A stretch of DNA of 32,000 nt from Candidatus Heimdallarchaeota archaeon. Lineage in GTDB: Archaea > Asgardarchaeota > Heimdallarchaeia > JABLTI01. The DNA lies in assembly GCA_030614005.1 (NCBI GenBank), contig JAUWKS010000026.1, positions 11,682 through 43,681 of the forward strand, read 5' to 3'. The notes beneath the pieces were generated by a model, which did not search any database, was not told the DNA's origin, and was given only the letters and a program-made list of their open reading frames with translations. Position numbers and translations under genes: made by a program. Shown in pieces: positions 1-3,675 of the stretch (position 1 is its first letter; each line of letters begins with the position of its first letter).

Positions 1-818
1 ATTTTAATCAACATATCCTGTCGTGCAACCTCGCGTGCTGCAAGGTCAACAAAAGTGCTTAAATCTTGCACTCCCTTTAGCTCTACCCGGTGACCTCCTC
101 TGATGCTAATATTTACATCTTGTCTTACAACCCCAAGACCTCGTTTACCTATTCCACTTAATCTAAGGGTTAATCCGATATACTCCGCGGCTCGTTGAAG
201 GTCTTGTGGATTATCACAATCATTATGGTCAGTAATAACTTCTACAAGAGGCATTCCCAAACGATCTAGATTATAATATACTGTCCTACCAAAATTCTCA
301 GTTTTGATTTTTCTTGCAGAATCTTCTTCAACAGTAAGATTAGAGATGCGTAATTTTTTCCCTCTAATAGGAACCCAACCATCACGTGCTACAATCATTG
401 TTCTCTGAAAACCTGTGGTGATGGATCCATCAAGATATTGTTTTCTCGAGACAACTACTTCGTCCACTAATGCAGAGAAATTTAACCAATGGGCCAGTTC
501 GAATCCCAGATAAATAGCTTCATTATCAGGCCAAAAGGGTGGTTGCTCATCTTGCTCATAAACACAGACCGAATCCTCATAAGCATGATAGATGACTCGA
601 TATCCTTTTTCATATTCGATTAGCATTCCTTCGTCGAAATCACCCATCTCACCTAATACTGGTCGGAAATATCGTTCAAAACGATAGTCAGGTTCTCCAT
701 GACTGAGAACGGGTTTACAATGACAGAATAACTTTCTTTTTGTGTTTATTTGATGATGAACTTCAATGCCTGCTCTAAAGCCCATTTTCTTAAAATCTAT
801 TTTAGTTAGGTCTAGCAT
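1..818 (-). CDS. gatE: Glu-tRNA(Gln) amidotransferase subunit E (5' part; runs off the left edge of the window)
   Basis: Not in the ORF track. Manual reverse-strand translation from ATG at 818 gives MLDLTKIDFKKMGFRAGIEVHHQINTKRKLFCHC...RKQYLDGSITTGFQRT...EEDSARK...LDRLGMPLVEVIT...RQDVNISIRGG.RVELKGVQ, which carries the GatE/GatB motifs (G.E.HQ, RK...DGS..TGFQRT, LDRLG.PL.E, RQDVN.SI). GTGAG SD upstream. Confidence 0.95.
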   Translation of the reverse strand, partial: MLDLTKIDFKKMGFRAGIEVHHQINTKRKLFCHCKPVLSHGEPDYRFERYFRPVLGEMGDFDEGMLIEYEKGYRVIYHAYEDSVCVYEQDEQPPFWPDNEAIYLGFELAHWLNFSALVDEVVVSRKQYLDGSITTGFQRTMIVARDGWVPIRGKKLRISNLTVEEDSARKIKTENFGRTVYYNLDRLGMPLVEVITDHNDCDNPQDLQRAAEYIGLTLRLSGIGKRGLGVVRQDVNISIRGGHRVELKGVQDLSTFVDLAAREVARQDMLIK

Positions 819-1050: not shown

Positions 1051-2214
1051 GTGTTTTCTATGTCGGCTCATAAATCTAAAAAAATGGAAAATATAAAAAC
1101 AGAAATACTTGTTGAAAAAGCAGATCCAAGTAAGGTACCACCTGTTATAATCGTCCATGGTGCCGGAAGCACAAAAATTGGTTTTGGTGGTGAACAATTT
1201 CCACGTTTTGTATTTCCAAGACAAAGCACCATTTTAAGCGACCGATTAAAACGCTTTCCACTTCAAGGTAGCTATACAACAAATGAAGAATGGTTGAAGG
1301 CTTATTGGCAAGCAATGATAATGAAATTAAGCACTGACCTCTCAGAGAGAAGAGTATTACTTAGCCTACCAACTGCTAATTTAACCGAATGCCCTTTTAG
1401 GGAATTGGCTCAAGAGTTCTTTTATGAAGACCTTCAAGCAAATCAGGTGGCTTTTGTATCAGATCCGTTTTTATCTTTAGTAGGTTATATCCCAAAAACA
1501 AAAAGTTTGACAGCACTAATAGTTGATATAGGTTTTTCACAAATCAGAATTGTACCTATTTATCAGTCAACAATTCTAGAAGACAAAATAGCCCAAATAT
1601 CATTTGGAGGATTTGACCTCACAAAAACTTTGGGGTTGTGGTTAAAAAATAAGGGATATGAAGGATCTCTGGATGCACTTTTCTTACGAGATATAAAAGA
1701 GAATTTTTGTTTAGTAAGACCATTTAAGCAGACGATGCCCGACACGGAAACTGAATCGTTTACGTATTCCATAGACAAATACAACTTTCAACTTACATCA
1801 GAACTCTGGAAATTAGCTGAATTATTTTTCTTTAAGGATTATTTTTCAAAGAAAGTAGAGATGTGTCCAAGAAGTACTTTTGAGGGAGAAAGATTCCCAC
1901 TAGATGAAATAACATTACCAAAAGCAATAGGTTTTGTTGTAAATAGTGTTGATGCAGAAATCTCTTCAAAACTAGTACAGAATATTTGTTTTACAGGTGG
2001 GGGTACAAAATTTAATGGAATTTATGAACGAATTCTTGAAGAATTCAAATTCCATTTTCCTGAATATAAATCTGAAGTTAAAATACATACACAATCTAAT
2101 AATGATCTCGTTCCTTACATCGGCGCGTCGAAATTATCAACTCTACCTTCCTTCCAAAATCATTGGCGAAACGCAGAAGAGTATGATGAAGGGTTATTTG
2201 ATTTATTTCTCTAA
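1051..2214 (+). CDS. Divergent actin-related protein (actin/Arp family)
   Basis: Actin-fold motifs in order: HGAGSTKIGFGGEQFPRFVFP (actin DNGSGxxKAGFAGDDAPRAVFP), LIVDIG..IRIVPIY, FGGFDLT, LRDIKENFC, CFTGGGTKFNG, YIGASKLSTLPSFQNHW...EEYDEG. Start uncertain (GTG 1051, ATG 1060 or ATG 1084). Confidence 0.9.
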   Translation: MFSMSAHKSKKMENIKTEILVEKADPSKVPPVIIVHGAGSTKIGFGGEQFPRFVFPRQSTILSDRLKRFPLQGSYTTNEEWLKAYWQAMIMKLSTDLSERRVLLSLPTANLTECPFRELAQEFFYEDLQANQVAFVSDPFLSLVGYIPKTKSLTALIVDIGFSQIRIVPIYQSTILEDKIAQISFGGFDLTKTLGLWLKNKGYEGSLDALFLRDIKENFCLVRPFKQTMPDTETESFTYSIDKYNFQLTSELWKLAELFFFKDYFSKKVEMCPRSTFEGERFPLDEITLPKAIGFVVNSVDAEISSKLVQNICFTGGGTKFNGIYERILEEFKFHFPEYKSEVKIHTQSNNDLVPYIGASKLSTLPSFQNHWRNAEEYDEGLFDLFL

Positions 2215-2966
2215 CTTTTCTTGGGTTGTTTTTTTCCATTACTATCAAATATAACAGGAATAATTTTACCATCTTCTATAGCAAAAATCTTATCTGCTTT
2301 TTTTGCTACGTCTAAATTGTGAGTCACAACCATAATTGTTATACTAAATTCTCTTTGTAAATCTCTCATAAGTTTGATAATTTTTTCACCTGTTTCTGAA
2401 TCCAAATTACCGGTTGGTTGATCTGCCAAAATGAGTTTCGGTTCATTAGCTAACGCTCGAGCAATTCCTACTCTTTGCTTCTCACCACTGGAAAGCTGTG
2501 TTGGAATGTGCTTTTTTCTTTTACTTAAACCAACTTTTTCTATTAGCTCATTTACTCGACGAACTCTTGATAATTTTTTTAAATTTTCTGCATAGATCAT
2601 TGGAAGCTCTATGTTCTGTTCAACTGTTAAAACTGAATGAAGATTTATATCTTGGAAAATAATGCCAACTTTTCTTCGAAATAACACTCTTTCTTCCTCG
2701 GTGAGAGATGAAATATCTTCACCATCATACCATATTTTTCCGCTCGTTGGTTTATCTAATCCTCCAATCAAATTCAATAATGTAGTTTTACCACTCCCTG
2801 AAGAACCAATTATTGCGATAAATTCATTTTCCATTACAATGAGATTTATTCCTTGAAGAGCTTCAACAGATGTCGATCTATCATCATAAGTTTTAGTTAG
2901 CTCTTCAATTAGAATGAGTATTTTTTGAGGAATACACAATGAAGGTGTATTTGTCATTTTAGGCAC
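2211..2966 (-). CDS. ABC transporter ATP-binding protein (LolD/MacB/FtsE-like), Walker-B E->Q
   Basis: Walker A GSSGSGKT, Q-loop IFQ, signature LSSGEKQRV, Walker B ILADQPTGNLD, H-loop VTH. Its TAG stop overlaps the convergent actin gene stop by 4 bp. Confidence 0.93.
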   Translation of the reverse strand: MPKMTNTPSLCIPQKILILIEELTKTYDDRSTSVEALQGINLIVMENEFIAIIGSSGSGKTTLLNLIGGLDKPTSGKIWYDGEDISSLTEEERVLFRRKVGIIFQDINLHSVLTVEQNIELPMIYAENLKKLSRVRRVNELIEKVGLSKRKKHIPTQLSSGEKQRVGIARALANEPKLILADQPTGNLDSETGEKIIKLMRDLQREFSITIMVVTHNLDVAKKADKIFAIEDGKIIPVIFDSNGKKQPKKS

Positions 2967-3675
2967 CCTCTTCTTTTTGAAAGTTTGTCAGTACAGAAGT
3001 AATTTTGCCATCTTCTAGGCCAAATGCTTGATCAGTAGCTTCTATGAACTGCCTCTTGTGTGAAACAATTATCATCGTTGTACCAAAATCTTCAGAAAGG
3101 GATTTCAAGTGATTGACTACCTCAACACTCGTAGATGTATCCAATTCTCCTGTTATTTGATCACCTAAGAGAATTTTTGGCTTATTTGCAATAGCGATTG
3201 CTAAACCAACTCTTTGTGCTTCTCCACCGGAAATTTGGTTTGGCTTGTGATTTTTTCGATGTGACAGTCCAAATCTATCTAATAGCTCGTACGCAATTTT
3301 CTTTTGCTCTTCCCTAGGTTTATTAGCAATTTGTAATGGAAGCATAACATTTTGCAAAACAGTATTTCCACTGATCAGATTATCTTTAGGTAGTTGCCAG
3401 AGATATCCTACCTGCTCTCTTCTAAATTTGATTAATTCCTTGTAAGTGAGATGAGTAATTTCTTTGTCATTAATTATAACGTAACCTGAACTAGGATTAA
3501 GTAAGCCGCCAAGTATTGAGAGCAAAGTAGTTTTTCCTGCACCACTCGGTCCAAATATCCCAACAAAATCACCTTCTTCTATTGTAAAACTGACACCATT
3601 GAGTGCGGAAATACCAAGTCTACTCACAGGGTTCACATAGACTTTCACTAAATCTACTACTTCAATTAGGGACAT
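2959..3675 (-). CDS. ABC transporter ATP-binding protein (LolD/MacB/FtsE-like), Walker-B E->Q
   Basis: Walker A GPSGAGKT, signature ISGGEAQRV, Walker B LLGDQITGELD, H-loop VSH. Confidence 0.93.
   Translation of the reverse strand: MSLIEVVDLVKVYVNPVSRLGISALNGVSFTIEEGDFVGIFGPSGAGKTTLLSILGGLLNPSSGYVIINDKEITHLTYKELIKFRREQVGYLWQLPKDNLISGNTVLQNVMLPLQIANKPREEQKKIAYELLDRFGLSHRKNHKPNQISGGEAQRVGLAIAIANKPKILLGDQITGELDTSTSVEVVNHLKSLSEDFGTTMIIVSHKRQFIEATDQAFGLEDGKITSVLTNFQKEEGA

Follow-up and report, generated by a model that had tools for sequence, protein, structure and literature searches.

What becomes of an actin that has lost both a metal-binding aspartate of its nucleotide site and the loop that makes the main longitudinal contact in filaments? 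The locus described here raises this question. It lies in a window of 32,000 nucleotides (the whole stretch of Candidatus Heimdallarchaeota DNA that was analysed), in which the open reading frame list contains, as claimed in a first-pass annotation, a frame at 1051-2214 on the plus strand. That annotation read the product as a non-polymerising, possibly hydrolysis-impaired Arp-like scaffold or capping subunit. We find that the gene encodes a lineage-restricted, fast-evolving Asgard actin paralog with a complete actin fold minus the D-loop hairpin. The earlier interpretation seems plausible in outline, but the conservation pattern does not favour its impaired-scaffold part.

The real start of the gene is most likely ATG 1060 rather than GTG 1051, which is improbable because the database protein P0002 and all homologues begin at ATG 1060. 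This start gives a protein of 384 aa. The gene and its immediate surroundings are laid out as follows.

3-818, minus strand: 5′ part of gatE (Glu-tRNA amidotransferase subunit E), with a Pfam GatB_N match
819-1059, no strand: AT-rich intergenic region, common to the paralog gene and the divergently transcribed gatE, read from the sequence
1060-2214, plus strand: divergent actin paralog, coding sequence for 384 aa, in a frame extendable to GTG 1051
1060-1140, plus strand: charged N-terminal tail, about 27 residues long, with predicted disorder and little conservation in the family alignment

The paralog gene stands alone, preceded by a 240-bp AT-rich spacer, because gatE is divergent and the genes downstream, two ABC ATPases and an FtsX-type permease, lie on the opposite strand. 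A TATA-like TTTTTTTATAT about 40 nt upstream of ATG 1060 may be a promoter element of the gene. The gatD-gatE / ARP order occurs in 9/9 genomes examined, and gatE is a conserved divergent neighbour without functional link. A CoA-binding protein gene is a conserved neighbour in five genomes, and the ABC transporter is inserted beside the paralog only in the window's own assembly (G000) and genome G234. No cytoskeletal partner was found among these neighbours (gatE/gatD, the CoA-binding protein, the ABC transporter) in the 9 genomes, and operon context was rejected as a functional clue, the conserved ones being only gatE/gatD and, in five genomes, the CoA-binding protein. As a separate observation, both ABC ATPases (2211-2966 and 2959-3675, minus strand) carry a Walker-B D-Q in place of D-E (LADQPTGNLD, LGDQITGELD), and both sit upstream of a 951-aa FtsX-type permease.

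The paralog is a real conserved gene and not a chance frame, because it matches Pfam Actin (PF00022) at 121.7 bits against a cut-off of 27 (E 3.9e-35), has orthologues in nine other genomes, and shows a dN/dS of 0.10-0.25. A word-indexed search returned 29 close relatives with 48-100% identity, annotated as hypothetical or 'actin-related protein'; wherever a source is named, it is a Heimdallarchaeota or 'Asgard group' MAG. Aligning 25 homologues (47-88% identity) gave 70 invariant columns, and all the odd residues are among them. The substitutions, the D-loop deletion, the inserts and the short C-terminus described below are invariant or nearly so in these 25 proteins.

The gene is under purifying selection, yet it evolves much faster than actin. 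In unsaturated pairs its ω is 0.10-0.25, compared with 0.02-0.04 for canonical actin in those genome pairs; the dN of the paralog is 5-10 times that of canonical actin. Protein identity within the genus is 48-92% for the paralog and 95-98% for canonical actin. Together with a narrow distribution, the very long stem of the family in our trees (about 1.9 substitutions per site) is what a decaying duplicate or an annotation artefact without function would be expected to show. Yet an intact frame was seen in 9 genomes, besides one contig-end fragment, and the ω values, the 70 invariant columns, the conserved synteny and a confident fold prediction all speak against decay. The selection and conservation data refute this explanation and leave it with almost no probability.

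The family is confined to one genus. In a library of 1.84 billion protein representatives it forms one 50% cluster plus a fragment, after which the score drops from 654 to 186 bits. The next proteins, from Anaeramoeba (146-186 bits), were rejected as eukaryotic relatives, their score being the sum of tandem actin domains; single Anaeramoeba actin domains score about 110-115 bits and are without the family's deletion and inserts. We also scanned 300 Asgard genomes from 30 families and 70 genera. Scores of 594-681 bits occurred only in the window's own genus, in 8 genomes and, as a partial copy at a contig end, in a ninth, and everything outside the family scored at most 121 bits (up to 143 bits with full ORFs scored). 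With one further member of the genus added, the paralog family is present in 10/11 genomes of one Heimdallarchaeia genus, and none was found in the roughly 290 other Asgard genomes sampled. The one congener in which the gene was not found, G288, is 86% complete. Its gatE and gatD share only 35-46% identity with the congeners' copies and are arranged divergently (G288:C52:64500-73500), which suggests that the amidotransferase locus may have been replaced in this genome. In the only sister-genus genome, the contig ends exactly upstream of gatE, so the paralog site falls outside it.

The predicted structure is that of an actin. An AlphaFold2 model built from 114 sequences (alignment A2) reached pLDDT 91.4 and pTM 0.89, superseding an earlier, mediocre model from 25 family sequences only (pLDDT 74.6, with the phosphate-1 region below 50). 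Aligned to G-actin chains with VIA-align, the model gives Z 38 and an rmsd of 2.2-2.6 Å over 325-335 residues at 24-27% identity. The four-subdomain actin fold is present, with subdomain 2 cut to 12 residues, and residues 1-20 are disordered in the model (pLDDT 45-56). The features that set the protein apart are these.

1144-1176, plus strand: phosphate-1 loop V32-K42 (VIIVHGAGSTK); D11 replaced by V/I, N12 by H and S14 by A, with G13 and K18 kept
1219-1254, plus strand: subdomain 2 remnant R57-R68, 12 residues; the counterpart of the actin 33-55 hairpin is lost at the 1218/1219 junction
1462-1464, plus strand: D138 at the actin Q137 position, within an invariant SDP motif
1486-1497, plus strand: 4-residue insert Y146-K149 after SLxG, at the base of the subdomain 1/3 cleft
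1522-1557, plus strand: phosphate-2 loop V158-P169 (VDIGFSQIRIVP); D154 and G156 kept, D157 replaced by F, G158 by S and H161 by R
1855-1905, plus strand: 17-residue insert at the hydrophobic-plug position, about V269-D285, a gap in all canonical actins aligned
1981-2019, plus strand: adenosine motif N311-G323 (NICFTGGGTKFNG), with GGG and F321 invariant

The first-pass annotation had most of subdomain 2 and the D-loop missing, and both the alignment gap and the confident model overlaid on G-actin bear this out. Its count of about 13 residues between PRFVFP and FPLQG, against about 38 in actin, needs a small correction: the deletion is real, and the exact numbers are 12 residues (57-68) in the paralog and 36 (33-68) in actin, a net deletion of 24. 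Against 17 canonical Asgard actins the deletion spans 25 columns (MAFFT). The segment has 12 residues in 25/25 family members, and its median length among the 89 nearest actin-family representatives is 35, as counted from MAFFT alignment A2; a count by hmmalign misaligned the N-terminal third and was dropped. Representatives with a short subdomain 2 were considered as a known family, but proved to be mixed unnamed metagenomic proteins and probable truncated eukaryotic gene models. After the PRFVFP strand, the model has only coil or a short strand (pLDDT 90-93). The D-loop hairpin of canonical actin and Lokiactin is absent in both the alignment and the confident model, and canonical D-loop-mediated F-actin contacts are therefore impossible for this protein.

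Several other surfaces are remodelled. The 4-residue insert lengthens its segment to 11 residues from a median of 7 in the other representatives, and lies at the foot of the target-binding cleft. The plug insert lengthens its segment to 28 residues from a median of 11 and carries the motif CPRSxFEG, with P273-R274-S275 and G279 invariant; it is modelled as ordered strands (pLDDT 97-98). The hydrophobic plug mediates cross-strand contacts in F-actin. The C-terminus is 3-4 residues shorter than actin's and ends in an invariant FL. Because it has no D-loop, a 17-residue plug insert and a remodelled subdomain 1/3 cleft, the paralog would be unable to form a canonical F-actin polymer by itself.

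The missing D-loop is no proof of a monomer, because MreB and ParM, with small or different IB subdomains, do polymerise. The paralog might instead be a self-polymerising, non-canonical actin that builds its own filament type through new contacts, such as the plug insert and the C-terminal FL. Crenactin uses an enlarged plug, and MreB, ParM and crenactin polymerise through divergent interfaces. An ordered and conserved plug insert would suit such a filament, a conserved nucleotide cleft is expected of a dynamic polymer, and among polymerising actin-fold proteins no part varies more than subdomain IB/2. But the D-loop, the main longitudinal contact, is lost, the paralog is confined to one genus, and an evolutionary rate 5-10 times that of the co-resident actin is unusual among cytomotive filaments, which make many self-contacts. 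We consider a filament of its own possible but rather unlikely.

The nucleotide cleft is altered in a different way. In HMMER and MAFFT alignments, VIIVHGAGSTK in the paralog corresponds to VVIDNGSGxxK in actin, which puts V35-H36-G37-A38 at D11-N12-G13-S14. The earlier reading of a V-H-G-A phosphate-1 loop without the Asp11 equivalent was thus reproduced, by HMMER against Arp1 and actin and by MAFFT against 17 Asgard actins. The D11 column holds V, I or A in 25/25 family members and no acidic residue, whereas among the 89 nearest representatives, 86 of which have a residue there, it is Asp in 81/86 and Glu in 3/86. By this comparison the lack of an acid at the D11 column is truly unusual. H36, at the actin N12 position, is invariant in the family. 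The columns of Q137, D157, G158 and H161 vary widely among the same 89 representatives.

The Asp that had been placed at the Q137 position is D138 in both alignments, in FVS-DPFLSL against F/YISMQAVLSL of actin. An acidic residue at this position is the rule in most other actin-superfamily ATPases, and the change restores the acid typical of them. In the phosphate-2 loop, VDIGFSQIR stands against LDSGDGVTH. The earlier reading of DIGFSQ for DSGDG was right about the substitutions S155I, D157F and G158S, but D154 itself is retained, as D159, and H161 is replaced by Arg. R166 (actin H161) and D138 (actin Q137) are invariant, and the catalytic Q137 and H161 pair of canonical actin is absent. Also invariant in the family are D159, G161, G316-G318, K42, K216 and E217, which provide the phosphate-2 DxG, the adenosine GG motif, K18 and K213/E214. 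The actin Y306 position is Phe, and K336 is lost. The first-pass annotation had missed H161 to Arg, G158 to Ser, the loss of K336, the 4- and 17-residue inserts and the shorter C-terminus.

A site that lacks the D11 carboxylate could be unable to bind Mg-ATP. The paralog would then be a nucleotide-free pseudo-ATPase, a scaffold or cap like yeast Arp7/Arp9, which is the earlier interpretation in its strongest form. The absence of D11 in 25/25 members, where 84/86 of the nearest relatives have Asp or Glu, is in line with this explanation, as are S14A, D157F/G158S and the loss of K336, all of which touch phosphate or adenine contacts. If the pocket were disused, however, it should drift in a protein that changes half its residues within the genus, and it does not. 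We scored 28 cleft positions (actin 11-18, 137, 154-161, 210/213/214, 301-306 and 335/336), chosen from established knowledge of actin structure. At least 90% conservation within the family is seen at 23/28 of these and at 105/329 other positions, with an odds ratio of 9.8 and a nominal p of 2e-7 that is indicative only, as the sequences are related to each other. The strong conservation of the cleft glycines is partly a fold constraint. The conserved side chains also include H36, S40, T41, K42, D138, D159, S163, Q164, R166, K216, E217, K320 and F321. This pattern argues for a cleft that has been rewired rather than one that is decayed or dead, and because the cleft is the best-conserved part of the family we regard it as probably still used. 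The earlier view of an impaired-site scaffold is disfavoured by these counts, and a nucleotide-free protein is unlikely.

A rewired cleft could also serve something other than a cytoskeleton. The paralog might be a neofunctionalised, non-cytoskeletal actin-fold enzyme or sensor in which His36, Asp138, Arg166 and Ser163 handle a different ligand. The substituted residues do not vary in the family and lie along the catalytic cleft, and the gene neighbourhood is without cytoskeletal genes. Precedent exists, as the actin superfamily includes kinases and chaperones (PMC5597319). Against this, G-actin itself is the nearest structure overall, a likeness that extends to subdomains 3 and 4 and the adenosine motif, and no search returned any sugar kinase or Hsp70 similarity. 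We think such a function very unlikely.

Where does the family come from? In trees of Asgard and eukaryotic representatives, which did not include named Arp2-10 references, it is an isolated clade at the end of its long stem. Both FastTree and IQ-TREE (C20 PMSF, quick) join the family only to a second aberrant actin-fold protein of the window's own assembly, the C82 actin, as two long branches (SH-aLRT 75-91). Without the C82 row the family has no sister group, and the C82 actin was rejected as a sister, the pairing being one of long branches only. The family profile scores canonical Asgard actins highest (122-143 bits), above eukaryotic actin and Arp1 (108-117) and other Asgard ARPs (69-120), and its best solved chain is HC1 actin (PDB 9wc4, 133 bits). 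This ranking is compatible with a lineage-specific duplication of actin, but is not proof of one, because among the relatives of a divergent protein it is always the slowly evolving ones that score best.

The C82 actin gene merits description in its own right. Located at G000:C82:36769-38073 (plus strand), it encodes 435 aa that are 28-31% identical to Asgard actin, with the phosphate-1 Asp kept and a degenerate phosphate-2 loop. Two genes that lie side by side in the closest relative are here separated by the insertion of about 1.45 kb that carries it, and no orthologue was found among 82 Heimdallarchaeia genomes.

Compared with canonical Asgard and eukaryotic actin, the paralog has the same fold and domain order, with K18, D154, G156, K213, E214, the GG adenosine motif and W356 in common. 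It is only 24-31% identical to them (24-27% to solved actins, 26-31% to Asgard actins). It differs in the replacement of D11, N12, S14, Q137, D157, G158, H161 and K336, in lacking the D-loop hairpin, in its 17-residue plug insert and 4-residue cleft insert, and in its 5-10 times faster evolution. More distant members of the superfamily, crenactin, MreB, MamK and ParM, have the fold in common with it, and crenactin also has an enlarged plug. The paralog scores 24.6 bits against a cut-off of 630 for crenactin, 25.4 against 400 for MamK and 18.1 against 27 for MreB. It fits only the descriptive label of an Asgard actin-related protein, because it lacks the features that define canonical actin, crenactin, MreB and MamK.

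Asgard ARPs are likewise divergent actin paralogs beside a conserved actin (PMC9834061, PMC8850707, PMC7444086). Every Asgard phylum has them, with functions that are not known (PMC7444086); Ca. Lokiarchaeum ossiferum has three besides Lokiactin (PMC9834061), and Asgard actins have been divided into five clades, 'asgardactins 1-5' (PMC8850707). Our literature search found no description of a D-loop-less, Asp11-less Asgard actin clade. The paralog grouped with none of the sampled ARPs, which included a 374-aa type from one other Asgard family, four Heimdallarchaeia types and zinc-ribbon fusions. The phosphate-1 Asp is kept in 6/8 of the sampled types, most have a long subdomain 2, and unlike them the paralog is confined to one genus. 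It is a lineage-specific variant within a known class of Asgard actin-related proteins. We also observed that other Heimdallarchaeia encode actin-fold proteins of 490-526 aa with an N-terminal zinc ribbon (CGK...C..C) and a large subdomain 2 insert (P0031-P0033), which form a well-supported clade of their own. A further genome (G304:C66:88500-92700) has tandem divergent ARP genes whose products have 393 aa and 463 aa, the longer one with an N-terminus resembling a zinc ribbon; neither product has the phosphate-1 Asp (MEFGT, IINGSS).

Among eukaryotic proteins, Arp10/Arp11 (the dynactin pointed-end subunit) and Arp7/Arp9 have an altered or short subdomain 2 and/or degenerate nucleotide sites, and are non-polymerising terminal or scaffold subunits. 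The ESM Atlas feature neighbours of the paralog include Arp10 and Arp7 clusters, though Atlas matches carry no alignment or E-value. No alignment-based tool confirmed these Arp10 and Arp7 leads, and actins or Arp1 make up all of the 60 best solved chains listed. These Arps offer a functional analogy only, with no evidence of orthology, and any likeness would be convergent because the paralog family is archaeal and genus-specific.

The paralog does not replace canonical actin. Nine other genomes of its GTDB family encode, alongside the paralog, a canonical actin that is 77-79% identical to reference Asgard actin (one of the nine copies is cut at a contig end); for sister genomes within the genus the identity is 77-78%. 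This coexistence of both genes in sister genomes upholds the earlier distinction between the paralog and the filament-forming Asgard actin. The assembly to which the window belongs is 90% complete, and no canonical, Lokiactin-type actin turned up in it. The likely cause is an assembly gap, because the genes that flank canonical actin in the sister genomes are missing too. The same assembly encodes a two-domain gelsolin (G000:C31:6643-7188). A Pfam profilin search returned no match in this genome, but control genomes were equally silent.

Taken with this context, canonical actin in the sister genomes and gelsolin in its own, the paralog has about an even chance of being a non-filamentous, nucleotide-binding partner of the canonical actin system. 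Binding of an adenine nucleotide would most likely persist, with metal coordination and hydrolysis kinetics both altered. K213, E214, G302 and Y306 (as Phe), which contact ribose and adenine, are retained, as are K18, D154 and the loop glycines. The metal-ligand Asp of phosphate-1 has given way to Val or Ile followed by the invariant His, with Gln137 to Asp, His161 to Arg and Asp157-Gly158 to Phe-Ser as the accompanying changes. The protein may act as a monomeric or terminal partner of canonical actin, for example as an end-binding or regulatory subunit. A more specific version, in which a genus-invented, Arp-type accessory subunit uses His36, Asp138 and Arg166 as a nucleotide switch while capping or nucleating the canonical Asgard actin filament, is decidedly unlikely. 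If true, it would be a convergent analogue of Arp11 or of Arp2/3-type end binding, without eukaryotic counterpart.

Being confined to one genus and not demonstrably linked to eukaryotic Arps, the family has little bearing on the ancestry of Arp2/3 or the nuclear Arps. What it does show is that an actin paralog can arise and undergo radical remodelling inside one archaeal genus. The combination of D-loop loss and a rewired catalytic cleft parallels the specialisation of eukaryotic Arps. Among the Asgard ARPs, none of which has a known function, this family is a clean and compact test case, and it provides a natural experiment in nucleotide binding and hydrolysis by an actin fold without the phosphate-1 aspartate.
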